Origin: an uncultured Chlamydiae bacterium
GTDB lineage: Bacteria; Chlamydiota; Chlamydiia; Chlamydiales; SM23-39
Direction of reading: 5' to 3'
NCBI GenBank assembly: GCA_903889795.1
Contig: CAISYW010000202.1
Span: 1 to 35,623, forward strand
DNA: 35,623 bases
The position numbers and the translations under genes are program-made. Shown here in pieces: positions 216-13,853 of this stretch. Each line of letters starts with the position of its first letter. Position 1 is the stretch's first letter. Below the pieces are notes generated by a model. That model was given only the letters and a program-made list of their open reading frames with translations. It had not been told where the DNA came from and did no database searches.

Positions 216-1187
216 ATGAGGAATTTAGGTAGAAAAAGAATTCTTGTCACGGGAGGCGCCGGTTTTTTAGGCTCCCACCTGTGCGAACGTCTCTTGAAAG
301 AAGGGCATGAGGTTCTCTGTGTCGATAATTTTTTTACCGGCAATCGGGAGAATATTTTTCATCTTTTATCTCAGCCGCGTTTTGAAGTGATTCGTCATGA
401 TATTTGTCTACCTTTGTACGTGGAAGTGGACGAAATTTTCAACTTCGCTTGTCCGGCTTCTCCTCTTCACTATCAGGCGGATCCCATTCAAACGATCAAG
501 ACAAGCGTTCTGGGTTCGATTCACCTGTTGGGCTTGGCAAAGCGGCTCAATGCGAAAATTTTTCAAGCTTCAACGAGCGAAGTATACGGGGATCCAGCGA
601 TGCATCCTCAGTCTGAAGATTATTGGGGGAACGTAAATCCAATTGGTTTTCGATCCTGTTATGATGAGGGAAAGCGCTGTGCTGAAACGCTTTTTGTCGA
701 TTATCATCGTAAGCATAACGTGCGGATCAAGATTGGACGCATTTTCAATACTTATGGTCCGCGCATGCATCCTAATGATGGCCGCGTAGTATCCAATTTA
801 ATTGTTCAAGCTCTTTGCAATCATCCACTGACGATCTATGGCGACGGAACCCAGACGCGTTCTTTTTGCTATGTGGACGATCTCATCGATGTTGCAATCC
901 GCATGATGGATTCATCGGATGAAGTGATTGGCCCCGTCAATATCGGTAATCCTGTTGAGTATCGGATTGTCGATTTAGCAAAACAAATCCAGCATTTGAC
1001 CGGTTCACGATCGCCGATCATTTTCAAGCCGCTTCCCTCCGATGATCCCAAGCAGCGGCGGCCTGATATTCGCAGCGCGCGCGAACTGTTAGGATGGGAG
1101 CCAAAGGTTCTTCTCGAGCAGGGTCTCAAACAGACTATTGCTTATTTCGATTCCGTTCTATCTGCCGGCAAGCAAGGACCTTTTTAA
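216..1187 (+). CDS. UDP-glucuronate decarboxylase / UDP-xylose synthase-type extended SDR
   Basis: ATG at 216 (the track ORF starts at TTG 207). Rossmann motif [18 protein letters not shown] and YDEGKR (Ser / Tyr-x3-Lys), plus IFNTYGPRM and [10 protein letters not shown] blocks typical of UXS-type decarboxylases. Confidence 0.85.
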
Positions 1188-1206
1188 TCGGGCAGGGGCA
1201 GGGAGT

Positions 1207-4200
1207 CTATTGATGCCGGTTATTAATTTCGCGCCATTTCCGAATGACCTCTGCCGCTAGTGGAGCGGCTTCCTTTCCGCCATCTCCGTAGCGAAGGTAA
1301 ACGACGACGATGAGTTCGGGTTTTTCCCATCGCTCTTTGTGCGATTTAATGGATTCGGCGGGGGGAAACGCGATCGCGCCAAACCAGATGTGCTTGTAAA
1401 TATAAGACGAAGAGGAGGGGTTGCAGTCGGGATGGCAGGAAATTTCAGCGGTACTGGTTTTTCCGATCATCTGATGCTGCAGAGCAAGAAAATCGCGAAG
1501 CTGGTTGGGATGTCCGTTGAGACCTTTGATGATACTGGGTCGTGCGCTGCCTTTCGGCCCCCAGATGACCCGGTCCATTCCCTCGCATAGCATATGGCGG
1601 ATGGAAGGAGCCAGGTTGCATTGATGTTCTGTTGGAAAAATTTTCTTTTTGATCAGTGTGGGAGTGCAAAGCCGTCCGCCGTTGGCCACTGCGGCAAGCA
1701 TTCTTGCGGCTTGTAGTGGCGTCGTTACAAGGGTGTGTTGTCCAATCGCAAAAGAGTAGAGGCCGGTACGGTTTGTATGAAGGTCTGTGGGGAGTCGTCC
1801 TTTGATTTCTCCCGGTAAATCAATCCCGGTACGCTCGCCTAAACCAAAATCGGCTGCTGTTTGTGTCAAATCGTCAGGATCTGAGAGGAAATCTCCTGCC
1901 AGAATGGCGAAATAGGGGTTGCTCGATTGTTCAAGCGCTCCAATAAGATCGACCTTTCCAATATTGGGCATATGGCTTCGGGGCAGTCTCCCTCCCTTGT
2001 AATGTCGATAGAATGGTTTATGATCGAGCGATGTTGCGACAACATCAAAGCCGGCATCATCAAATAAAACGAGAGGCGAGGAAGCAAAGCTGTCTTGATT
2101 GAGAGCGGCGGCGGCGGTGACGAGTTTAAATAAAGAGCCCATAGGGGCCGCGCTTTGATAGGCATGGCTGCGGCTAAATCCAAAGCCGCCAATCGGATAA
2201 AAAGCTGCGGCGAGATCTCGTTCGGTCTGCTCCCCCTTTTTGCCTCTCAAGTGACGATAGGATCCCCATAGAGGTCTTTCGAGTTCGCGAAACGAACGCA
2301 TGGTTTTGAGCCATTGTATAAGATCAGCTTCTTTCACATTGACGCTAGACTCTCGGAGCAGAGACCAGTCGCTCATTTGCTGGAGGGAGATATTCAGATA
2401 TTGCCGCGATTGTTCAGGTAAAATCGCCGTTTTTGGGTTTAATAGCGAAGCGAGAAGAGGAAAGCGGATTTTTTGCCAAAGCTCTTCAAATAGATCTCGT
2501 TCTTTTTGATCGAGATAATCGATATAGGGCCTTGCGTAGGTCTTTTTTTCTTTTTCCTCGCGTCGTATTTGTTGAAGAAATTCCTTTTGATTCAGGGTGC
2601 GCCAAGCGCGAAATTCCGTTTGATGGAAGATCTTTTGACATTGCAAGCGCACTTCTTGTTCCGCTCGTTGGAGCGATTGCGTAAGCGATCGATAGGTGGA
2701 AAGTTTGATGGAACCAACTCGTTCGACGAGCTCATCGGTGAAGGCGGGGCTATAGACGACGATTCGACTCATGTCGAGAGCAAACAGCTTGTCTTTGTTA
2801 TGAGGAACCTCCTTGAGAAGAGATTCGAGCCGCCGCCAAGGGGGCATGGCATCGCGGGCATTATTTTGCAGAGCTTCGAGGGCAGCATTTTTGTTTGCCT
2901 CTGTGATGTTTTGCATGCATAGGCTGCCATCGGGAAAGAGCAGATCGATCAACAGAGATGGGTCAGGGTTATTCGCATAGTAGAGCAGCGCTTCAAAATC
3001 TTCTTGCATCTGAATCGCGGTTTGAATGTTGTCGATTCGAGTCCATAGAGTAAAAAGGGGGCTGTCGGCGGGAAGAGTCTGTTGCAGATAGGTTTCCCAA
3101 ATCAGAGGTTTTTCTTCATCTTGTTTTAGGCCTTCTCGAAAGAAACAATCCTTGCCATCCCAGAGGTTGGCTATGTAGCGATCGCTTTCCAGCCAGCGAT
3201 GGATTCGATGCATTTTTTGTTCGCGGTTTGAAGTTGTGATAAAATCGTTTGGATCAAATCGAGGTATTCCGGCTAAAGCGATCACTTCTCCGTTATTGGG
3301 ATCGAGCGCGACGATGGCTCCCCCCTTGATCAGGGGTTGTTTTAAAAATTTTCGTCCTTTGGTTTGAGGATCGAGACCCGCGCTGCATCGATCTCGTGTT
3401 TTTTCATTTTGAATCAGGAGGGATTCGCAAAATTGCTGCAGTTCCGCAGAAAGAGACAGGGCGATGGTTCGTCCGGCTGTGGGCTCTTTGCCTCCCGGTA
3501 ATTCGCGAAGACAGGTCCCCTTCCGGTCAACTTCAAATATTTTTTTTCCATAAAGGCCGCGCAATTCTTGCTCGTATTGTTTTTCGATCCCGGTCTTCCC
3601 AACCAAGTCGTTCAACGTGTAAGCTTTTTCTTTTAATTCTCGGAAACGGTTTAAAAGCGCACTTTTTTCTCCGTCTTCAGCAATCATCTGCTGGAGAAGG
3701 TCGATTTCACCAGCGATATCGAGGTATTCTTTTTGGCTAATGGCTCCCAGGTGCCCGATCACGGATGCCGCCGTTTTGCCATGAGGGTAAGTGCGCTCTA
3801 AAGAGATCGCCGCATGCAACCCCAGCCATTCTCGCTCGAGTGCTCGCAGGCGATAGTACTTCTGTTCGGAGATGTTGGACTTGATGATGAATGGAACGTG
3901 AGGAAAAAGCGATGCCTTTGCGTGAATGAGATCTTCGATTCGTTCCGGGTCCATCTCGAGCTCTTGGCTCAATATGCGAGCCAGATTGCGGATATAATCT
4001 CTTCTCGTAAAAACGCGTACACGTTGTCCTGCTTCATCCGTAGACCAGGTGGTGGAGGGAATTTGCGCGAACTGTCCGTAGTAAATCGATGCATTATAAC
4101 AAATGCGGTTTGTGGCTAGCGGGATGCCAAATCGATCAACGATAGCGCCTCGTTCGGCTTGCTGAATAATTGTGCGGCGCTGTGGTTTTTGGGCCTCTTG

Positions 4201-4314
4201 AAGCTTTTCCTCGCGCTGAACGACCGTCAGATGCCAGATTCGAAAGACAATGAGCAAAAAAGCGCCCAGAAAGATTTGAAGGAGCCGATTTGATTTTTGC
4301 AGCGGAGAGGCCAT
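1207..4314 (-). CDS. pbp2: Penicillin-binding protein 2-type peptidoglycan transpeptidase (oversized chlamydial form)
   Basis: 1035-aa ORF with an N-terminal membrane anchor (LLQIFLGAFLLIVFRIW). C-terminal transpeptidase motifs are S-L-F-K (SxxK), S-S-N (SxN) and K-T-S-T (a variant of KTG). Several hundred extra residues lie between the N-terminal domain and the transpeptidase, as in chlamydial PBP2. Confidence 0.8.
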   Translation of the reverse strand: MASPLQKSNRLLQIFLGAFLLIVFRIWHLTVVQREEKLQEAQKPQRRTIIQQAERGAIVDRFGIPLATNRICYNASIYYGQFAQIPSTTWSTDEAGQRVRVFTRRDYIRNLARILSQELEMDPERIEDLIHAKASLFPHVPFIIKSNISEQKYYRLRALEREWLGLHAAISLERTYPHGKTAASVIGHLGAISQKEYLDIAGEIDLLQQMIAEDGEKSALLNRFRELKEKAYTLNDLVGKTGIEKQYEQELRGLYGKKIFEVDRKGTCLRELPGGKEPTAGRTIALSLSAELQQFCESLLIQNEKTRDRCSAGLDPQTKGRKFLKQPLIKGGAIVALDPNNGEVIALAGIPRFDPNDFITTSNREQKMHRIHRWLESDRYIANLWDGKDCFFREGLKQDEEKPLIWETYLQQTLPADSPLFTLWTRIDNIQTAIQMQEDFEALLYYANNPDPSLLIDLLFPDGSLCMQNITEANKNAALEALQNNARDAMPPWRRLESLLKEVPHNKDKLFALDMSRIVVYSPAFTDELVERVGSIKLSTYRSLTQSLQRAEQEVRLQCQKIFHQTEFRAWRTLNQKEFLQQIRREEKEKKTYARPYIDYLDQKERDLFEELWQKIRFPLLASLLNPKTAILPEQSRQYLNISLQQMSDWSLLRESSVNVKEADLIQWLKTMRSFRELERPLWGSYRHLRGKKGEQTERDLAAAFYPIGGFGFSRSHAYQSAAPMGSLFKLVTAAAALNQDSFASSPLVLFDDAGFDVVATSLDHKPFYRHYKGGRLPRSHMPNIGKVDLIGALEQSSNPYFAILAGDFLSDPDDLTQTAADFGLGERTGIDLPGEIKGRLPTDLHTNRTGLYSFAIGQHTLVTTPLQAARMLAAVANGGRLCTPTLIKKKIFPTEHQCNLAPSIRHMLCEGMDRVIWGPKGSARPSIIKGLNGHPNQLRDFLALQHQMIGKTSTAEISCHPDCNPSSSSYIYKHIWFGAIAFPPAESIKSHKERWEKPELIVVVYLRYGDGGKEAAPLAAEVIRKWREINNRHQ

Positions 4315-4534
4315 ACTACTATTGAAATCGTACAGAAATTTTTATGCGAGAAAAATGAAATGTTTTCCGTCTGAATATGCAAAAAAATAATTATAATACA
4401 GACAATACTTTAGAGAGGAGGGCAGGGGAAGATTTTCATGAGAAGGAAGGGTTGATCTTTCTTGCAATAAATCGCTTTCTCAAGTAAAACTACTATTTCT
4501 ATTTTTTTAAGAGCTCCTGTAGGAGTGTCTTAAT

Positions 4535-4605
4535 GCGCCTGTCGTACAATGGTAGTACAGTAGCCTTCCAAGCTACGAGTGTCAGTTCGATTCTGTCCAG
4601 GCGCT
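4535..4605 (+). tRNA. tRNA-Gly (anticodon UCC)
   Basis: Hand-folded cloverleaf: acceptor GCGCCTG/CAGGCGC, D arm GTAC-AATGGTA-GTAC, anticodon stem GTAGC/GCTAC with loop CTTCCAA, T loop TTCGATT (one U-U mismatch in the T stem). No encoded CCA. Confidence 0.85.
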
Positions 4606-4649
4606 AGTGTTTAACGCAGACGGGGATTGTCCCTGTCGATCATAAGAAC

Positions 4650-5480
4650 ATGAGGAGCATGGGTTTGGCTACAGCAGAGCAATACGAAGTAGCAGTAACA
4701 ATTAAGGGTTTGATCGAGTCTGGGGCCCATTTTGGCCATCAAACACGTCGCTGGAATCCAAAAATGCGTCGCTTTATTTTCGAGGAGCGCAACGGGATTT
4801 ACATCATCGATTTGGCTAAGACCTTGCAGCAAATTCGTGCAGCAGTGTCCGTGGTTCGTGAAACGGTCAGCAAGCGAAAGTCGATTTTGTTTGTTGGAAC
4901 GAAAAAACAGGCCAAGATTGTCATTAAAGATTGCGCGGAAGAGTGCGGTGAGTTTTATGTATGCGAGCGTTGGTTGGGCGGCACTTTGACCAATCTAACG
5001 ACGATTCGCCAATCTGTTAAAACGATGGAACGAATTGAAAAACGACTTGCGGCCGGTGGAGAAGGCTTGAAGAAGAAAGAGATTTCTCTTCAGACTAAAG
5101 AGCTTGTCAAACTCAACCGTAACTTGTCAGGAATTCGTGCCATGCGCAAGCCGCCCGGGCTCTTGATTGTCGTCGATCCGGGTCGTGAGCATATCGCTGT
5201 CGCGGAAGCCAATAAATTGGGCATTCCCGTGATGGCTCTGGTTGACACGAATTGCGATCCCGATCCGATTGATTATGTGATTGCATGCAATGATGACGCT
5301 CTTAAGAGCATCAAGATCATATTGAACGCATTGATGCAGGGGATTATCGACATTAAAAACGACAGGGATCTTCCTAGTTCGAAAGGCGATGAAGAGAATG
5401 TATCGTCCGATGAGGATGAAGATGATGATGAGGAAAGTGAAGAAGGAGAAGAGTCTCCTGATGACAAGGGTGGGAAATGA
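4650..5480 (+). CDS. rpsB: 30S ribosomal protein S2
   Basis: The HFGHQTRRWNPKM signature and overall S2 blocks are present. The stop overlaps the tsf start (ATGA). Carries an acidic C-terminal tail. Confidence 0.95.
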   Translation: MRSMGLATAEQYEVAVTIKGLIESGAHFGHQTRRWNPKMRRFIFEERNGIYIIDLAKTLQQIRAAVSVVRETVSKRKSILFVGTKKQAKIVIKDCAEECGEFYVCERWLGGTLTNLTTIRQSVKTMERIEKRLAAGGEGLKKKEISLQTKELVKLNRNLSGIRAMRKPPGLLIVVDPGREHIAVAEANKLGIPVMALVDTNCDPDPIDYVIACNDDALKSIKIILNALMQGIIDIKNDRDLPSSKGDEENVSSDEDEDDDEESEEGEESPDDKGGK

Positions 5481-6325
5481 GGGAAATCACATCTGACATG
5501 ATTAAGGAGCTTCGGGAACGAAGCGGCGTAGGAATGGGAAAGTGCAAAGAAGCGCTTGTCCTCGCTGAAGGCGACATGGAAAAAGCGATCGATATTTTGC
5601 GCAAGTCTGGTTTGGCTGCGGCCGTTAAAAAAGAGGGTCGCGAGACAAAAGAGGGGATGATTCAGACGGCGGATGATCGGTCTACTCTCGTGATTGCTGA
5701 AGCGAATGCGGAGACGGACTTCGTTGCGAAAAACGATCGGTTTAAGCATTTTCTTTACGACTGTGTCAAGCAGGCGCTTGAAACAAAGCCTAAATCTCTG
5801 TCGGATTTTCTTCTTCAGCCCTACTTCAAAGATAAATCAATCACTATCGATCAGTACCGAAATTTGGTTATTCAAGCTCTTGGTGAAAATATACAGCTAA
5901 AACGGCTGGAGATTGTTCACAAGCACCCCAATTGCTCGTATGGAATTTATTCCCACATGGGCGGTAAGTTAGTTGTTGTCGTCGAAATGGAAGGTGCTTC
6001 CGATCAAGAGGGGATAGCTAAAGAAATTGCGATGCATGTGGCTGCGGAAAATCCTGATTATTTGAAGCCAGAAGAGATTCCGGCGCATGTATTAGCTCGT
6101 GAAGAAGAGATTGCGCGCTCGCAAGTCCAAGACAAACCGGCTAATATTGTCGATAAGATCGTCGCCGGCAAGTTAAAAGCGTATACGGATCAGGTTTGTC
6201 TCGTTCACCAAAAATATGTGAAAGATAATAGCGTGACAATCCAGCAATTTCTCGATGTCTGTTCGAAGAAGTTAGAAAAAAAGTTCTCGATTCGCTGTTT
6301 CTGGCGTTGGAAAGTCGGTCAATAG
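5477..6325 (+). CDS. tsf: Elongation factor Ts
   Basis: N-terminal UBA-like block ITSDMIKELRERSGVGMGKCKEAL and EF-Ts core blocks (AETDFVAKN, HVAAENP). Translationally coupled to rpsB. Confidence 0.95.
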   Translation: MREITSDMIKELRERSGVGMGKCKEALVLAEGDMEKAIDILRKSGLAAAVKKEGRETKEGMIQTADDRSTLVIAEANAETDFVAKNDRFKHFLYDCVKQALETKPKSLSDFLLQPYFKDKSITIDQYRNLVIQALGENIQLKRLEIVHKHPNCSYGIYSHMGGKLVVVVEMEGASDQEGIAKEIAMHVAAENPDYLKPEEIPAHVLAREEEIARSQVQDKPANIVDKIVAGKLKAYTDQVCLVHQKYVKDNSVTIQQFLDVCSKKLEKKFSIRCFWRWKVGQ

Positions 6326-6382
6326 TGTATCCGTGTAAATTCCTCGATGTTTATCATCGGGGAATTTTCTTCAATAAATTTA

Positions 6383-6418
6383 ATACCATGAACCTTTGGC
6401 TTCATGGTATGATTTTCT
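6383..6418 (+). terminator. Rho-independent terminator candidate downstream of tsf
   Basis: Perfect 10-bp stem ATACCATGAA/TTCATGGTAT with an 8-nt loop, followed by GATTTTCT, about 57 nt after the tsf stop. Confidence 0.5.
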
Positions 6419-6521
6419 CAAGTCCATTTTCGCTGGGTTATGAATATATTTCTGATTCTTTGACTTTGTTGAGGGATTTACGGCGCGACGGACTTATTTT
6501 CAATGAACGAGTGGGTGTATT

Positions 6522-7076
6522 ATGAGCAATATCGATGCGCAAATTAAAGCCGCGATGCAGGCTGTTTTAGATCACCTCAAAGGTGAGTTAAGGAGTCTCA
6601 GGACGGGACGGGCCAATTCAGCAATGTTGGACAAAGTGCAGGTTGAGGTTTATGGCAATCATATGCCGATAAAAAATCTCGCCAGTGTGACTGTTCCTGA
6701 GTCGCGTCAAATTTTAATCTCTCCTTTTGATGCTAGTTCGATTCATGCGATTGCTAAGGCGATTGACGCTACAAATATCGGTCTGCACGCTGTTGTAGAC
6801 GGCAAGGTTGTGCGTGTACACGTCCCCCCGATGGATGAGACCATCCGCAAGCAAATTGCCAAGCAGTGCAAGGAATTGGGTGAAAAATCAAAGATCGCAA
6901 TGCGTGATGTTCGCCGTAAGTATAACGAATTGGTGCGTAAGCAAAAGGCTGACGGCGTAATTCCGGAAGATCTCATGAAAAAATATGAAAAGACTGTTCA
7001 GGATTTGACAGAACGTTTCTGTAAGGATATCGATGCGGTTTGTGCAGATAAAGAAAAAGAGATCATGACTGTTTGA
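6522..7076 (+). CDS. frr: Ribosome recycling factor
   Basis: 184 aa, with typical RRF blocks (LRTGRANSAMLD, VEVYG, IRKQIAK, RDVRRKYNE). Confidence 0.95.
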   Translation: MSNIDAQIKAAMQAVLDHLKGELRSLRTGRANSAMLDKVQVEVYGNHMPIKNLASVTVPESRQILISPFDASSIHAIAKAIDATNIGLHAVVDGKVVRVHVPPMDETIRKQIAKQCKELGEKSKIAMRDVRRKYNELVRKQKADGVIPEDLMKKYEKTVQDLTERFCKDIDAVCADKEKEIMTV

Positions 7077-7269
7077 TTTTTTGGCGAAGTTCGTATGTCA
7101 TTGTTATGTATGGACTTCAATGTTTTGCTTAGATGGTTTGGCCGGTTTTTTTCTGGGGGTTGATGATCCTGTTTTTTTTCACATTTGCGGAAAATGACAT
7201 TGATAGTTTAAGATTGATAGCGTTTTTCATAGAGCCCTGAAGATAGAATTAAGGGTAGTGTTGTTAATT

Positions 7270-7344
7270 GGCCCCATCGTCTAGTCCGGCCTAGGACACC
7301 AGATTTTCATTCTGATAACACGGGTTCGAATCCCGTTGGGGTCA
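7270..7344 (+). tRNA. tRNA-Glu (anticodon UUC)
   Basis: Acceptor GGCCCCA/TGGGGTC, D region TCGTCTAGTCCGGCCTAGGACACC (close to E. coli tRNA-Glu), anticodon loop TTTTCAT, T arm CGGG-TTCGAAT-CCCG. Confidence 0.9.
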
Positions 7345-7358
7345 AATTTTTGAGTTAC

Positions 7359-7430
7359 GAGACTTTAGCTCAGTGGTAGAGCATCTCACTTTTAATGAGA
7401 GGGTCGTTGGTTCAAATCCAACAAGTCTCA
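7359..7430 (+). tRNA. tRNA-Lys (anticodon UUU)
   Basis: Acceptor GAGACTT/AAGTCTC, D arm GCTC-AGTGGTA-GAGC, anticodon stem TCTCA/TGAGA with loop CTTTTAA, T arm GTTGG-TTCAAAT-CCAAC. Confidence 0.9.
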
Positions 7431-7619
7431 ACTTTATAAAAGAATTTAGTTTTCACGACTAGATTTTATCTAAAATTTTATTCTTAATAAATTCAGACAA
7501 GCTTTTTAAATATAATATATGTTTTCATGGATTTTAAAAAAAAAATTAAATATAACTAAAAGAAGCGGAAATTTTCTAAAAAATAAATTTACTTAATACT
7601 AAAAATTATTTGGTTTTTT

Positions 7620-8390
7620 ATGATTTATGATGTAACAATTAAGTCTCACGAGAAAGATTCATACAAATTAGACTTAGTCTTAGATTCTCTAGTCCTATTG
7701 AATCCTCAACCAAATTATATATATATAATTTCACCTAGTGGTTTTCGACCTAATCATAGCTTTTATAGAAAAAAAATTATTTGTTTAAAGGATGATGAAG
7801 TAACGCCTTTTATTGATCGCGCAAGAATTTCAGTTATGCCAAATTGGGTCTGGACTAATTTAGTGTCATTAACGCAAAATTTCACTGAAAATGATTTTTA
7901 TCTCGACGTTCAATCGGATGTGTTTTTTTTGAAACAGATTAATTTATTCGATGAACTAGGGCGGCCGAAACTATTTAAAACTACATCTAACGAAGCTAAC
8001 AACAATAATGGGGAGAGCTCATATTTCAGATTTAGCAAGGAGATGTTTAGTGTAAATAAGATTACTGATGGTGATTCGTATATCATCGATTACACGATGT
8101 ATAATAAAACGATTGCCAAAAAAATTTATAGTAAATACCGTTCAGTTGAAGATATGCTGGAAGCTGCATATAAAGTTATCGATGAAAGTCGATTTCCAGC
8201 TGATGGAGAAATTTTCGGTAACTTCGTAGAAAAGTTTTTTCCTGATTTTTATTGTATTACTAGAGAAATAAATCATTGTTTTTCGGGTGTACGAAGTGGT
8301 GAGGGAAGAAGGTCTACTGTACTTGCATATATAAACAAGTGTAAGCAATCTTCGTTTATGAATTCCTGCGCCTTTCACGATTGGAAATAA
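7620..8390 (+). CDS. Hypothetical protein, possible GT-A-like nucleotide-sugar transferase
   Basis: 256-aa AT-rich ORF starting at ATG 7620. The block NWVWTNLVSLTQNF-x6-YLDVQSDVFF weakly resembles the region around the DxD motif of GT-A-type transferases. Composition becomes GC-richer in the last ~35 codons. Confidence 0.55.
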   Translation: MIYDVTIKSHEKDSYKLDLVLDSLVLLNPQPNYIYIISPSGFRPNHSFYRKKIICLKDDEVTPFIDRARISVMPNWVWTNLVSLTQNFTENDFYLDVQSDVFFLKQINLFDELGRPKLFKTTSNEANNNNGESSYFRFSKEMFSVNKITDGDSYIIDYTMYNKTIAKKIYSKYRSVEDMLEAAYKVIDESRFPADGEIFGNFVEKFFPDFYCITREINHCFSGVRSGEGRRSTVLAYINKCKQSSFMNSCAFHDWK

Positions 8391-8391
8391 T

Positions 8392-8576
8392 ATGACGGTT
8401 TCTGAAGCCAAACGAATGAGAGTTCTGGAATCTTAAAATGCCGCTCTGCTGGAGGAAAGAGGTATGTTGAGGAGTGGCGAGAAGAATCCAATGAATATCG
8501 TCCGCACAGTTCGCTGGGAGGGAAAGAGCCTTGTGAAGTAGCCAGAAGCGAAGAAAAAAGAGCGAAAATATCCTGA
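8392..8576 (+). pseudogene. C-terminal remnant of a DDE (rve-type, IS3/IS481-like) transposase
   Basis: The frame ending at TGA 8574-8576 reads YVEEWREESNEYRPHSSLGGKEPCEVA. This is the W-x3-YN-x2-RPH-x2-LGG-x-P signature found at the C-terminus of integrase-core transposases. The upstream piece (MTVSEAKRMRVLES) is in a different frame. No catalytic or N-terminal part is present. Confidence 0.6.
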
Positions 8577-8860
8577 ACCTCTATTACTAATCCACTCGTC
8601 AATTAAGTGACAAAAGGCTTGCTGTGCCTTTGCCATATTGATCCTCCCTCGTCAGCCATAGTTCTGCTATGGCCTTCATCCTTCGGACCGCTGCACTTCA
8701 ATCTGGACAAGGCTGCGGATTCGCACGAGAAGGTCCAGTGGACCTTCGCAGTGGAGAGCAGGTGAACAAAGCGAACCGGCCCGAAGATTGTGGCAAGCCG
8801 ACTCAGTCCAAAACCGATTTCTAAAGCATGTTCGGTATAGAAAAGCTTACAATCGACTTT

Positions 8861-9736
8861 CTAACTTTTTTTGCTATCTGCCGCTTTAATAGATTTGATG
8901 ATGTTCTCAATTAAATTGTTTAAATTTTTGTCATTATAAAAAACGCAATTACATGGAATTTTTAGATTTTCTGCGTAACAGTCAGGTTTGTTATTTCCAA
9001 ATGCAATAATTACTTTTTCTTTGTCATTTAATATTTTTTTAGTTTGCATAAATGCAAATGGCCCTGTGTTTCTTGCTAAAATAAATTTGCATTTTTCAGC
9101 TAGCCAACTGATTTCATTTAAATCACAATCATTAGTCTTGATTATTTCAGATGTATTAACAATGTTTTTTGCTGTTACACGAGAATAAGAGGTTAAAATA
9201 ATTCTTATATTTGGAAATTCATTTGTTATTGCAGAAACGATCGGATCTAAATTATCTCCTAAGTTTGTTTGACCTGAATGAACAGGACCGTTAACAAAAA
9301 TTATAGAATTTAAGTAATCAACTGGATAATTTGTAGGAATATCGAAAAATTTATAGTCAATTTCAGGTATGTAATACTCAGGATCTTTTAAAATTAGTTT
9401 TTTTTTGGTTATGCTTTCAAGGAATTTATATATTAAGGAAAATAGCCGATGATATTCCGTAAGGTACATTCCTGATCTATTTGGAAGATTTGCAATCCAT
9501 GTATTAATGAAAATGTTATTATTATCAATGTGATGAGTTATTCTCGGCTGCAAAATTTTATCAAATTCGACTAATGGTAAGTATTTAGCTGGCAAATCTA
9601 ACAACAATTTTGGGCCGTGATGATGCATCAAGCTATAATTAAATTCAGGAATTTGATCAATTATATCTTTTATAAACCATTTAGATTGAAATTGATCGCC
9701 TTTGTGCCAGTTATTGAAAAAAGTTATATTATACAT
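8861..9736 (-). CDS. Hypothetical protein, possible GDP-sugar (fucosyltransferase-like) glycosyltransferase
   Basis: 291-aa Asn/Ile/Lys-rich ORF. Its ATG directly abuts the TAA of the upstream methyltransferase gene. Weak motif resemblance to GT11-type motifs (HKGDQFQ near the N-terminus; DLNEISWLAEKCKFILARNTGPFAF near the C-terminus). Confidence 0.6.
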   Translation of the reverse strand: MYNITFFNNWHKGDQFQSKWFIKDIIDQIPEFNYSLMHHHGPKLLLDLPAKYLPLVEFDKILQPRITHHIDNNNIFINTWIANLPNRSGMYLTEYHRLFSLIYKFLESITKKKLILKDPEYYIPEIDYKFFDIPTNYPVDYLNSIIFVNGPVHSGQTNLGDNLDPIVSAITNEFPNIRIILTSYSRVTAKNIVNTSEIIKTNDCDLNEISWLAEKCKFILARNTGPFAFMQTKKILNDKEKVIIAFGNNKPDCYAENLKIPCNCVFYNDKNLNNLIENIIKSIKAADSKKS

Positions 9737-10957
9737 TTAAATACTTATTATTTCAAAATTTGGACAGGGAACTATAAATTTTCCACCGTTGCGCAAATAT
9801 TCCTGTTCGCGCTCAATAAATTCATTAATAAAATGCCAGGGCAGAACTAATAAGTAATCCGGCTTTGCTTTGCGCATATCTTCTTCAGAATAGATGGGAA
9901 TATTTGTGCCAACAGTTTTTAAACCGTACTTATATGGACTTCTTTCAGCAATTCCTTCAATCAGAGTATGGTCAAGATTGAAATACTGCAATAACGTATT
10001 TCCTTTTGTTGATGCTCCATAACCCCAGATTTTTTTACCTTTTTGCTTTTCGTTATAAATAAAATCGTAGGTCTGTTTCTTTAATTTTTGAAGTTTTTCA
10101 TAAAAAGCAGCCCAAATCTCAGGGGTGTTATAATTATTGGTTTTTTCATATGCCAATATTGAATTAACCCTAAAACTACAAACGTCGCGGTTTGGCTGAG
10201 TGCTAAACTTTTTAAGATTTCCTGAGTCCTTCATCGCATATACTCTAAATGACCCGCCATTAATGTCGTTTAGTTGGCAATCTACGATTTTAAATTTGTT
10301 CTTTTCAAAAAGATTTTTTATTGATGTTAATGTATAGTAGTAAATGTGTTCGTGACAAATATTATCAAAAGCCATCTGATCAATCATCAGAGGTGAGTAA
10401 CTCATCTGAACAACCATTAACCCATCATTTTCCATGACGCTATAAACATCAGAAAGAAATTTTGAGGGATCTTCCAAGTCATAGAACATGGCAATAACAG
10501 TGACTATTTTTGCCTTCCGCGCTCCTTGTTCTGATTTTTTATATGCATCTGCAGAAAAATAATCTTGAATAATTAGATCTGCATGGCAACGTGATTCTTT
10601 GACATAACTATCCTCAACGGGATCGACTCCAATGCGAATACAATCCTTTGGCACAAAGCTAAGAAGAGTTCCGTCATTGCAGGCGATGTCGAGCCATACA
10701 TCCTTCCTTTCTAATTTGATCAAACTGCAAACTGAATTAACAATGCTTTTCAATTCAGTGCGCATTGTTTGATTAATTCCTGATCGATACCAGTACTTGC
10801 CATACATTGCATCTTTCGGGGCGGCTTTTTCAAGCCTCACTTCTGATGTTGCTTCATCAAACATCATTTTCATTTCGACTTTTCCGCATCGGGGAAATTC
10901 ATTAACATGAAGAAAATCGGAAACATATAGTTTTCCCAATGAAAAAAATTCTTTCAT
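9737..10957 (-). CDS. SAM-dependent NDP-hexose C-methyltransferase family protein (TylC3/NovU-like)
   Basis: SAM-binding block LDIACNDGTLL, YWYRSGINQTM, and C-terminal HEHIYYYT ... INGGSFRVYA blocks characteristic of this family. The N-terminal Cys4 zinc ribbon of the family appears to be lost. Confidence 0.7.
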   Translation of the reverse strand: MKEFFSLGKLYVSDFLHVNEFPRCGKVEMKMMFDEATSEVRLEKAAPKDAMYGKYWYRSGINQTMRTELKSIVNSVCSLIKLERKDVWLDIACNDGTLLSFVPKDCIRIGVDPVEDSYVKESRCHADLIIQDYFSADAYKKSEQGARKAKIVTVIAMFYDLEDPSKFLSDVYSVMENDGLMVVQMSYSPLMIDQMAFDNICHEHIYYYTLTSIKNLFEKNKFKIVDCQLNDINGGSFRVYAMKDSGNLKKFSTQPNRDVCSFRVNSILAYEKTNNYNTPEIWAAFYEKLQKLKKQTYDFIYNEKQKGKKIWGYGASTKGNTLLQYFNLDHTLIEGIAERSPYKYGLKTVGTNIPIYSEEDMRKAKPDYLLVLPWHFINEFIEREQEYLRNGGKFIVPCPNFEIISI

Positions 10958-11004
10958 ATTTTTCCTTTTATTATTTCTGATATTGTTTGTTGTGTATTAT
11001 TTAA

Positions 11005-11259
11005 CTAATTTTTTCCGTATAGTTTAGTTTTTCCTTGCTTGTATAGTTTTTGCGGTTGTTTTGTAATTATAATATTATTTATTAGTTCGTCAATTTCTTG
11101 AATGAGGTCATTCCTCTGTTGGTTACATATATTAGTTAGTCTGGTTGCTTGAGCTAACTGGGCGTCAGTGGCGGCAGGTTCTCTTTTAATGTCTTCAGCC
11201 ATCCAAATTCTTATATTTACCACAGTTAGTTTGTCGATAAGATTAGCTATTGTTTCCAT
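11005..11259 (-). CDS. Small hypothetical helical protein
   Basis: ATG at 11259 (the track ORF starts at TTG 11280). It overlaps the last 17 nt of gmd and has the same AT-rich composition, sitting inside a tightly packed operon. Motif L-x3-N-x3-W-x2-ED-x2-R (LTVVNIRIWMAEDIKR). Confidence 0.45.
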   Translation of the reverse strand: METIANLIDKLTVVNIRIWMAEDIKREPAATDAQLAQATRLTNICNQQRNDLIQEIDELINNIIITKQPQKLYKQGKTKLYGKN

Positions 11260-12277
11260 GGGTACTCTTCTTTTTTTCAAAATTACACATATCTATTATT
11301 AGTTCATCGAATGAAATTCTTGGTTTCCATCCAAGGACATGTTCAGCGCGTGAACAATTTGCTGATAAGAATCTCATTTCCAATGGCCTAAATAATTCCG
11401 ATGAAATTTTTATTATTACATTCCCCGTTTCTTTGTTTAAGCCCACTTCATTAATTTCTTCACCTTGCCACTCAAGATCAATTCCATATATTTTACAGCA
11501 TTTCTCAGCAAATTCTCTTACCGTGTGTTGAGCGCCTGTAGCGATTACGTAATCATCTGCACTATTTTGTTGGAGCATTAACCACATGGCCTCAACAAAG
11601 TCGATTGCATGCCCCCAGTCTCTTTTTGCATTTAAATTTCCTAGAACCAGTTCGCTCTCTTTATTTATAGAAATATTATATAAAGTGTTTGTTATCTTTT
11701 TTGTTACAAACTCGAGTCTGCGTCTCGGAGATTCGTGATTAAATAAAATTCCATTAACTGCATATATTCCATATTTTTCCCTATAGGTTCTTGTCATCCA
11801 ATATGCGTATACTTTTGCACAACCATAGGGGCTGAGAGGGTGAAAGGGGGTCGTTTCACTCTGAGGAATTTCTTGTGCATGACCAAACATTTCTGCTGAC
11901 CCGGCCTGATAAAATTTAATATCTTTCATTTTATTGAGAATTTTAATGGATTCTAGGATTCGTATAGGTCCAAATGCTAGGGTATTAGAGATCTCTTCGG
12001 GCTCTATAAAAGATACTTGAGCATCGCTTTCAGCGGCTAGGTTATAAATTTCCTGCGGATTTATATCGTGAATTAAATCAGTAATGTCAGTTGTTCTGTT
12101 TAAGTTGCCGCAATGAAGCTGAAAATTGTTATTGTTAATAATGTCTTGTAACCAAATTGTTTTTTGAGTATTTAGGCTTCTTATTAGTCCGTGAACTTCA
12201 TATCCTTTATTTAATAATAATTCAGCAAGGTAGGAACCATCCTGCCCTCCGACGCCAGTTATAAAAGCTCTTTTCAT
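11243..12277 (-). CDS. gmd: GDP-mannose 4,6-dehydratase
   Basis: ITGVGGQDGSYLAELLLNKGYEVHG, GSAEMFG, SPYGCAKVYAYW..YRE and ILFNHESPRR blocks are GMD hallmarks (Ser/Glu and Tyr-x3-Lys). Confidence 0.85.
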   Translation of the reverse strand: MKRAFITGVGGQDGSYLAELLLNKGYEVHGLIRSLNTQKTIWLQDIINNNNFQLHCGNLNRTTDITDLIHDINPQEIYNLAAESDAQVSFIEPEEISNTLAFGPIRILESIKILNKMKDIKFYQAGSAEMFGHAQEIPQSETTPFHPLSPYGCAKVYAYWMTRTYREKYGIYAVNGILFNHESPRRRLEFVTKKITNTLYNISINKESELVLGNLNAKRDWGHAIDFVEAMWLMLQQNSADDYVIATGAQHTVREFAEKCCKIYGIDLEWQGEEINEVGLNKETGNVIIKISSELFRPLEMRFLSANCSRAEHVLGWKPRISFDELIIDMCNFEKKKSTHGNNS

Positions 12278-12481
12278 ATAATGCTTTTTTTAATTTATGT
12301 TCAGGATCAGACGTTTGGTTGACAATATTTATTCGTAAGTATTTATCAGTTTCAAGCAATCAAACTATGCTGTTTTCTTATATAACTTCTTTTTAAAATA
12401 AATTTGCAAGTTTATTAGTATTTTTTAGAAACAATTCGATAATTTTTTCTGAGATTGAGTCGTCTTGGAAATATAGGAATA

Positions 12482-12583
12482 ATCGTCAATAGAGGTTGAC
12501 GATATACTGGGCGCGGGTGGGTTCTTAACTTTGAGGTGCAAAAGATGCCGATTAAAAAGTTAAAGACCTATCCGCGCTCAGTA
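12482..12583 (-). terminator. Two hairpins downstream of clpX (candidate terminator / island boundary structure)
   Basis: Long imperfect hairpin at 12505-12583 (arms TACTGGGCGCGG/CCGCGCTCAGTA plus inner CTTAACTTT/AAAGTTAAAG). It is followed on the - strand by ATCGTCAA-6nt-TTGACGAT (12482-12503). Only a weak U-tract. Confidence 0.35.
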
Positions 12584-12623
12584 TAGAAGATTAATAAAGC
12601 AAAGCAAGTTTCCCAGCATCGCC

Positions 12624-13853
12624 CTAAGGCTTCATATCTCGAATGATGCGAGGAGGTCGATTGTCAACGAAGCACTCTTTGTCGACCATGATTTCTCGAA
12701 TCGTCGGATCAGAGGGAACTTCAAACATCAAGTCGCGAAGCATATTTTCAGCGATCATGCGCAAGGCCCGGGCGCCAGTGCCCGTTTGTCTGGCTTTTTC
12801 AGCCATGGCAATGAGAGCTGTTTCGGAAAACTCTAACTTGACGTTTTCTTCTTGAAAAAGCGCTTGATATTGTTTGATGATTGCATTTTTAGGTTTGGTA
12901 AGAATGTTGACCAAATCTTCAACGGTTAGTTCGTTACAATTGGCCAAACTGTTAAAGCGCCCAACAAATTCGGGAATCATCCCAAATTGGATCAAATCTT
13001 CAGGCTCGACTTTCGAAAGAAGGTAGTTGGTTTCCTCTGCATCGAAACGGCGCTTGGTGGCGGCGTCAAATCCAATGGTGCTCTTCCCTAAGCGTTTGGC
13101 AACAATTTTATCGAGGTGATTAAAGGCGCCTCCCACAATAAACAAAATGTTTTGCGTATTGACCCGGATATATTCCTGGTTGGGATGTTTGCGGCCGCCT
13201 TTGGGTGGAACATTTGCTACGGTTCCTTCTACAATCTTGAGGAGAGCTTGCTGAACGCCCTCTCCGGAGACATCTCGGGTGATTGATACGTTCGAAGTGG
13301 TCTTGCGTATTTTGTCGATTTCATCGACATAAATGATCCCTTGCTCGGCTTTGCCAACATCATAATCAGCCGCTTGCAAGAGACGCAAAATGATGTTTTC
13401 TACGTCTTCGCCGACATAACCGGCCTCGGTGAGCGTTGTCGCATCGGAAATCGCAAAGGGGACATCCAAAATCATCGCTAAGGTACGGGCGAGTAGCGTT
13501 TTTCCGGAACCGGTGGGACCCATTAGCATTACATTGGATTTACTATATTCGACGCTGTTCTGCCGGGATAGTGAGCGAATTCTCTTATAATGATTGTAGA
13601 CAGCGACAGAGATTGTTTTTTTCGCAAGATCCTGACCGATTACGTATTCATCGAGATGAGCTTTAATTTCTTTTGGTTTAAGAAGCTTAATCTCATAGGT
13701 TACGGGTTTTTTTTTGATGATGTCCGCGCAAAGCGTTACGCATTTGTCGCAGATATGGACGTTGGGTCCCGAAATGAGTTTCTCAACAAGATCTTCTGTC
13801 CGTCCGCAAAATGAACAGCTTGTCGGAGCTTCGTTCGATGGTTTTTTTCCCAT
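12624..13853 (-). CDS. clpX: ATP-dependent Clp protease ATP-binding subunit ClpX
   Basis: N-terminal C4 zinc finger (CSFCG...CDKC), Walker [12 protein letters not shown], Walker [10 protein letters not shown], pore loop GYVG, IGF docking loop, GARALR sensor. Confidence 0.95.

Follow-up and report, generated by a model that had tools for sequence, protein, structure and literature searches.

The window analysed here is the whole 35,623-nucleotide (nt) stretch of contig CAISYW010000202.1 (assembly GCA_903889795.1, host genome G000), from an uncultured chlamydial bacterium. It contains a cassette of four open reading frames (ORFs) with the predicted capacity to build and transfer a modified deoxysugar. 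All four lie tightly packed on the minus strand, at the coordinates proposed in the initial annotation of the locus: gmd (12277-11243), encoding a GDP-mannose 4,6-dehydratase; a gene for an 84-amino-acid (aa) short form of DUF4254 (11259-11005), matched by PF14063; a gene for a 406-aa C-methyltransferase of the TylC3/TcaB9 type (10957-9737), matched by PF13489 and PF08484; and a gene for a 291-aa "orphan" protein (9736-8861) whose predicted structure has a GT-B fold resembling glycosyltransferase family 9 (GT9). The junctions, read from the sequence, were also as first described. The stop codon of gmd lies over the ATG of the DUF4254 gene at 11259, giving a 17-nt overlap; a 47-nt spacer follows the DUF4254 stop and carries AAAGGA ahead of the ATG of the methyltransferase gene; and the methyltransferase TAA abuts the ATG of the glycosyltransferase (GT) gene at 9737/9736. 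No noteworthy terminator-like site was seen to interrupt the four genes, and promoter and terminator scans gave matches no commoner than in shuffled sequence. The cassette is carried by an island of low GC content (7431-12504; 0.29-0.37 versus 0.44-0.52 in the flanks) placed between a tRNA-Lys gene (7359-7430) and clpX.

The first product is a Gmd by every measure applied, in agreement with its original assignment. It scores 434.2 bits on the NCBIfam equivalog TIGR01472, whose cut-off is 415, matches PF16363 with an expectation value (E) of 1.6e-122, and aligns over its full length (residues 2-336) with the solved Gmd PDB 2z1m (E 1.6e-108); it is also the only cassette protein with a match in PHROGs. 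The Y-x3-K motif (SPYGCAK) and the cofactor loop GILFNHESPRR are intact. In the catalytic motif, GSAE, the Glu is kept and a Ser occupies the Thr position, a replacement recorded for other GMD sequences, including active ones (PMC3539893). The protein is 89% identical to its counterpart in the sister lineage (locus L015). It is a divergent second copy within its own genome, since it shares only 49% identity with the Gmd encoded on contig C144, which reaches 585 bits.

The methyltransferase matches PF13489 (E 3e-13) and the C-methyltransferase C-terminal domain PF08484 (E 2.3e-45), together with solved sugar 3-C-methyltransferases at E values from 3e-34 to 1e-23 (4rv9, 3e-34; TcaB9, 1.6e-28; 5t64). 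Judged by these matches it is a true homologue of the nucleoside diphosphate (NDP)-4-keto-sugar C-methyltransferases, and the TylC3/NovU-type identity assigned to it at the outset holds, with the tree placing it in a related clade. With TylC3, TcaB9 and KijD1 (4rv9, 3ndi, 5t64) the enzyme shares a two-domain build, Rossmann plus PF08484, a full-length alignment and the equivalents of TcaB9 Tyr76, Glu224 and His225, which are Tyr55, Glu203 and His204 in the window enzyme. It differs from them in three respects. No match to the N-terminal four-Cys zinc domain PF08421 was found in the enzyme or in its best 120 homologues, and its residues 1-60 contain a single Cys; TcaB9 His181 and Tyr222 are replaced by Asp160 and Cys201, both invariant in 39 of 39 sampled clade members; and its neighbour is gmd instead of rmlB. 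The homologue search returned at least 8000 proteins, the best 120 of which are 404-413 aa long and 66-75% identical to the query. In the tree, a 39-row clade made up of the close family of the window enzyme, a chlamydial group at 40% and an actinomycete group is split with 100/100 support from TylC3, TcaB9 and an RmlB-linked chlamydial homologue. By its sequence features, this is a very large, zinc-less clade related to TylC3/TcaB9.

The neighbourhoods of related genes, in a sample drawn by similarity to the window methyltransferase, indicate which nucleotide sugar the clade would use. In bacteria, actinomycetes among them, in archaea and on many viral contigs the gene has gmd as a neighbour. 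Of 13 independent close-family loci, 9 encode Gmd no more than 5 kb away, and a Gmd is present in 38 of the 61 viral loci whose context spans 15 kb or more. Near the actinomycete homologues, which are only 33-37% identical, gmd starts 18-95 nt downstream in 13 of 15 loci. When the type of linked dehydratase is mapped on a 95-row tree it needs 2 changes, against a mean of 6.8 after shuffling, with none of 500 shuffles as low; the 17-row subclade of the window enzyme has 13 Gmd-linked members and no RmlB-linked one. This linkage, both across the clade and within the subclade, therefore makes a route to a GDP-linked C-methyl-6-deoxyhexose the best reading, in which the window methyltransferase would act on GDP-4-keto-6-deoxymannose. 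By homology to TylC3/TcaB9 the methylated position is most likely C3, the other option being C5. The actinomycete loci (L024-L035 and L040) belong to Micromonospora, Actinomadura, Spirillospora, Dactylosporangium, Nonomuraea and Amycolatopsis, and may themselves produce C-methyl sugars from GDP-linked precursors, evalose for instance.

The initial annotation had left two products without a family. For the smaller one this no longer stands: it matches DUF4254 (PF14063) with 40.9 bits against a threshold of 27 (E 2.4e-10), and because the match covers only profile positions 3-62 of 144 the 84-aa protein is a short form of the family. More than 1352 homologues exist at 70-78% identity, and across 33 sequences 32 of the 84 residues, mostly polar, are invariant. 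Its AlphaFold2 model (predicted local distance difference test score, pLDDT, 89) has two helices arranged as a hairpin followed by a conserved tail; Foldseek returned generic helical hairpins only (best E 0.37), and no function was drawn from them. A MazG-like or ferritin-like four-helix dimer, an idea taken from the conserved acidic residues, was dropped as nothing supported it. Every short-DUF4254 locus that was opened also contains the methyltransferase, and in 14 viral loci the two genes are at most 37 nt apart and always on the same strand. Of the 61 viral methyltransferase loci, 11 contain an orphan-like GT, and each of these also has a DUF4254- or DUF6165-like gene (Fisher p 1.8e-5), and in locus L057 the order DUF4254-methyltransferase-GT is identical to that of the window. 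The DUF6165 family is apparently related to DUF4254, as the short-DUF4254 profile detects DUF6165 at L004:1723-2085, L004:9212-9595 and L041:7636-7998 (E 2e-8 to 6e-5), and DUF6165 genes directly adjoin either the orphan-like GT, upstream of it, or the methyltransferase in phage contigs. The only functional remark found in the literature links DUF4254 to the heptosyltransferase RfaF in Flavobacteria (PMC9425974), which fits a GT9-like partner. The DUF4254 protein is thus a putative accessory factor, co-inherited with the methyltransferase and the GT, and would be a subunit or a small enzyme at work between methylation and transfer. One 735-kb uncultured phage (L085, LR756501.1:300000-335000) has two orphan-like GTs, DUF4254, a 63%-identical methyltransferase and a second, distant C-methyltransferase within 25 kb.

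The 291-aa protein matches nothing in Pfam, NCBIfam or PHROGs, as first noted, and has about 30 detectable homologues; its fold nevertheless gives it a place. The AlphaFold2 model (pLDDT 93, predicted TM-score 0.90) retrieved from the PDB, at the top of the Foldseek list, the GT9 heptosyltransferases WaaC, WaaF and TibC with probability 1.0 and E values from 2e-7 to 1e-4 (entries 6dfe, 2gt1, 2h1h, 1psw, 3tov and 4rap). In BFVD it retrieved a Solumvirus protein (E 6e-21, TMq 0.86) and phage proteins named GT9, RfaF, Aah or TibC; GT11-like proteins came only far down the lists. Residues G13-D14, D47, N78, LNEIS206-210 and G225-P226 are invariant in the family. The N-terminal G-D and the C-terminal DLNEIS...GRNSGP would stand at the places of the GT9 catalytic Asp and donor-binding loop, by comparison with WaaC and on an alignment that is itself not significant. 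Hence the modelled fold makes this protein a GT-B glycosyltransferase, GT9-like in structure, and the probable transferase for the modified sugar, in line with the dedicated transferase that had been suggested. Its link to the pathway is strengthened by a Methylococcaceae metagenome-assembled genome (MAG; JAUGSS010000044.1, L020:8501-11546), in which one 906-aa ORF fuses an orphan-like GT, an FkbM-type Methyltransf_21 domain and the C-methyltransferase, tying the GT to the same pathway as the methyltransferase; a DUF4254 gene starts 5 nt downstream of the fusion.

The nearest methyltransferase relatives are viral, and it is mostly in aquatic viruses that the cassette is otherwise met. A T4-like phage contig, recognized by its clamp, clamp loader and RegA genes, carries a methyltransferase 75% identical to that of the window, whereas the best other chlamydial homologues, the copy of a congeneric genome included, reach 42-45%. 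Further relatives occur in actinophage-like contigs with WhiB, in the deposited 735-kb phage genome and in 274 IMG/VR viral contigs, some labelled as giant-virus MAGs, and cellular ones are scattered over MAGs of Alphaproteobacteria, Methylococcaceae, Victivallaceae, Saccharimonadia and Woesearchaeota. A TylC3-type gene of some kind is present in 67 of 301 sampled Chlamydiota genomes, so that the presumption of novelty for Chlamydiae fails for such genes in general; it holds for the virus-associated clade with its DUF4254 and GT partners, which is unique to this lineage among the sampled chlamydiae, DUF4254 being found in one of the 301 genomes. The low GC content, the gap between viral and chlamydial identities and the single DUF4254 occurrence support horizontal transfer, the probable source being a pool of genes that freshwater phages and giant viruses also draw on. 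In the sister lineage (L015/L016) the cassette is in the same place, after clpX, and a sister contig holds a further methyltransferase copy at 94% identity. Between the two lineages the ratio of nonsynonymous to synonymous divergence (dN/dS) is 0.15 for gmd, 0.07 for DUF4254, 0.075 for the methyltransferase and 0.215 for the GT, with synonymous divergence (dS) of 0.23-0.78, comparable to that of clpX, clpP and tig. The shared position and these values imply that the island was already in the common ancestor and has been under purifying selection. In the congeneric genome G173 clpX is not beside frr or tRNA genes, and no clean empty site is definable.

Taking into account that: (i) the methyltransferase subclade is linked to gmd; (ii) its DUF4254 and GT partners recur with it, and (iii) the four genes are conserved in two lineages, we propose that the cassette is a horizontally acquired module for sugar tailoring and transfer, kept by selection, which would convert GDP-mannose into a C-methylated 6-deoxy sugar and deliver it to a surface acceptor. 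We give this reading as a whole a probability of about 0.58; that the cassette is functional is probable. In the model, Gmd, as its family membership and intact catalytic residues suggest, would convert GDP-D-mannose to GDP-4-keto-6-deoxy-D-mannose. The methyltransferase, with S-adenosylmethionine and the Glu203/His204 pair, would then methylate a carbon beside the 4-keto group, C3 in preference to C5. The keto group would subsequently be reduced by an enzyme encoded outside the island, the likeliest being the GDP-fucose synthase of contig C144, for which C5 epimerization and C4 reduction would still be possible, or alternatively by a bifunctional island Gmd. This would yield a GDP-6-deoxy-C-methylhexose of the virenose or evalose type, whose sugar the GT9-like GT-B enzyme would move to the lipopolysaccharide (LPS) core, to another envelope glycan or to a protein. 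DUF4254, whether subunit or small enzyme, would work alongside both the methyltransferase and the transferase.

Several points weigh against this proposal, and we take them together with the alternatives to which they lead. The first is the reduction step, for which there are candidates and no assigned enzyme. Within the island (7431-12504) no reductase or epimerase of the short-chain dehydrogenase/reductase (SDR) type was found, as the initial annotation had stated; for the genome the statement fails. The 1.57-Mb assembly, 83% complete, has 15 SDR-family matches (sugar 4-ketoreductases belong to this class), and a search for an unlinked GDP-4-keto-sugar reductase found on contig C144 a GDP-L-fucose synthase gene, fcl (454 bits), adjoining the canonical gmd (585 bits). 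Fcl normally epimerizes C3, and a C3-methylated substrate cannot undergo that epimerization. The motifs of the C144 enzyme (GSSCIYP, Y-x3-K and H-V-L-P) contain the Ser-Cys, Tyr-Lys and His residues listed for GMER (PMC3539893). An alternative does away with a separate reductase: the island Gmd would be both dehydratase and 4-reductase, and the four genes alone would lead to a D-rhamno C-methyl sugar resembling GDP-D-evalose. It is consistent with 20 of the 61 viral loci, where no SDR other than Gmd lies within 10 kb of the methyltransferase and the set is, in three cases, exactly Gmd, DUF4254, methyltransferase and GT; with the divergence of the island Gmd from the C144 copy; and with its catalytic Ser, bifunctional GMDs having been cited for Klebsiella, Aneurinibacillus and Pseudomonas (PMC3539893). 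However, many related loci have an Fcl-like or other SDR gene adjoining the methyltransferase (L004, L022, L057 and L058, the first three with an Fcl-like one), and the host genome itself offers a canonical Fcl. No sequence feature is known to predict bifunctionality in a GMD, and we regard this alternative as tentative, with perhaps a minor share of the probability. Contig C144 holds, from 314 to 13585, a second glycan locus of the fucose type, composed of an rfbF-like cytidylyltransferase gene, two GT25-like genes, a GT11-like gene, fcl and the canonical gmd, as well as paralogous pairs of 387/391-aa and 519/520-aa proteins.

The second point concerns the nucleotide. The methyltransferase clade has no characterized member, and all solved homologues use dTDP-sugars. 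Moreover, the specificity of the family is not uniform, as one well-supported subclade is linked to RmlB-like dTDP-glucose dehydratases: in place of Gmd, an RmlB-like gene lies downstream of the methyltransferase in L143, L150, L152, L162, L165 and L166, directly adjoining it in the five loci other than L143, and elsewhere in the tree L106 has one about 1.5 kb downstream. These neighbours are 43-47% identical to the RmlB of the host genome, where rmlA and rmlD are also present, and the subclade suggests a switch of nucleotide-sugar substrate inside the family. The window enzyme could by the same token use the dTDP-4-keto-6-deoxyhexose made by RmlA and RmlB, leaving the adjacent gmd to serve another product, such as GDP-rhamnose or GDP-fucose for the same glycan. 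We consider this improbable. Not only is gmd in the same tight operon, but the subclade of the window enzyme has the 13 to 0 distribution given above, its clade carries an active-site signature unlike that of TylC3/TcaB9, and even the actinomycete relatives have gmd less than 100 nt away.

The third point is the supply of GDP-mannose. A search of the assembly, 83% complete, turned up no gene for the mannose-1-phosphate guanylyltransferase ManC, despite its two gmd genes. Together with the lack of a reductase in the island, this would fit an incomplete passenger of horizontal transfer that yields no finished product. Such an account fares no better than the previous one, because two diverged lineages both retain intact copies of all four ORFs, at dN/dS values of 0.07-0.22 and dS of 0.23-0.78, and an Fcl is encoded elsewhere in the genome. 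The congeneric genome G173 and 16 of 26 relatives do have ManC, and its absence here is likely due to the missing 17% of the assembly; the host cell may also supply GDP-mannose.

The last points concern the two remaining proteins. The role given to DUF4254 is deduced from gene linkage, and the acceptor of the GT is named at candidate level, since it may be the LPS core, another envelope glycan or a protein. Sequence similarity of the 291-aa protein to GT9 (PF01075) is not significant, with no Pfam match and hhalign E values of 0.53 for Escherichia coli WaaC and 0.32 for WaaF, and for this reason GT9 membership is claimed by fold only. The weaker Foldseek matches of the model include GT-B-fold NDP-sugar 2-epimerases (5xvs, 1f6d and 5enz, E about 1e-3), and the Coxiella D-virenose proposal requires an unidentified 2-epimerase (PMC3539893), from which one could argue that the protein is a nucleotide-sugar epimerase or hydrolase finishing the stereochemistry, with transfer taking place elsewhere. 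Of all the alternatives this is the least probable, as the GT9 transferases outrank the 2-epimerases by three to four orders of magnitude and the viral matches are named GT9, RfaF and TibC. The presumed GT9 catalytic motifs described above also speak for a transferase.

The island contains one more gene outside the operon, on the plus strand (7620-8390). Its 256-aa product has no direct Pfam match; PF20102 (DUF6492) was found in 31 of 43 homologues and Stealth_CR2 in 4 of 43, and its counterpart on the sister contig L015 shows 81% conservation. It is probably, from the families of these homologues, another sugar or phospho-sugar transferase.

The proposed GDP-linked route, which the initial annotation had considered unusual, has a precedent. 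For Coxiella burnetii a GDP-virenose pathway was proposed in silico, with CBU0689 as gmd, CBU0688 as an fcl-like gene and CBU0691 or CBU0683 as the methyltransferase (PMC3539893, PMC3204966); a 2026 preprint still describes it as not fully characterized. It follows the logic of the model given here: GDP-mannose yields GDP-4-keto-6-deoxymannose, which after C-methylation and GMER-type reduction becomes a 6-deoxy-3-C-methylhexose for LPS, and both organisms are intracellular bacteria. The differences lie in the methyltransferase, CBU0691 being 44% identical to TylCIII (PMC3539893) while the window enzyme belongs to the zinc-less clade; in fcl, which is inside the Coxiella cluster but on another contig here, where gmd and the methyltransferase share one operon; and in the DUF4254 and GT9-like partners, which are not described for the Coxiella system, a route that is itself unproven. 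Nothing was found in the literature on DUF6165 or on a characterized GDP-sugar C-methyltransferase beyond this in-silico work. As regards the transferase, the closest known systems are the GT9 enzymes WaaC, WaaF and TibC/Aah, together with the RfaF linkage of DUF4254 cited above; the 291-aa protein is shorter than these, and its predicted donor is a GDP-6-deoxyhexose instead of ADP-heptose. Viruses also carry GDP-sugar modules with gmd, and the Gmd of chlorovirus PBCV-1 also reduces its product to GDP-D-rhamnose. Close relatives of the cassette are encoded on T4-like, actinophage-like, huge-phage and giant-virus contigs; for a C-methyltransferase, DUF4254 or GT9-like partner in the viral modules no description was found in the literature. 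Thus what sets the cassette apart from known systems is its methyltransferase clade, the unlinked reductase and the DUF4254 and GT9-like partners.

The expected type of product is known from other organisms: 3-C-methylrhamnose (evalose) occurs in the O-antigen LPS of Burkholderia andropogonis (PMC7203242) and in orthosomycin antibiotics (PMC12961483). A bolder interpretation, which we put forward as speculation and think rather unlikely in its entirety, is that the zinc-less methyltransferase and DUF4254 form an unrecognized two-component system that makes C-branched GDP-6-deoxyhexoses without a dedicated reductase. DUF4254 would then provide the missing catalytic or channelling function towards a new GT9-like family, and phages and giant viruses would have been the main vehicles of the system, using it to add the C-methyl sugar to virions or host envelopes, before a chlamydia captured it. 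C-branched deoxysugars are rare and immunologically distinctive surface components, such as the virenose of the Coxiella O-antigen, and to our knowledge no biochemical demonstration of their GDP-linked biosynthesis exists. The cassette offers a compact four-gene entry point to a large, virus-associated and unstudied C-methyltransferase clade, for which the homologue search returned at least 8000 proteins. Its characterization would put the GDP route to a direct test, reveal what DUF4254 and the new GT-B family do, and indicate which glycans aquatic phages and giant viruses build. For chlamydial biology, it would supply a tangible example of genes passing between viruses and intracellular bacteria.

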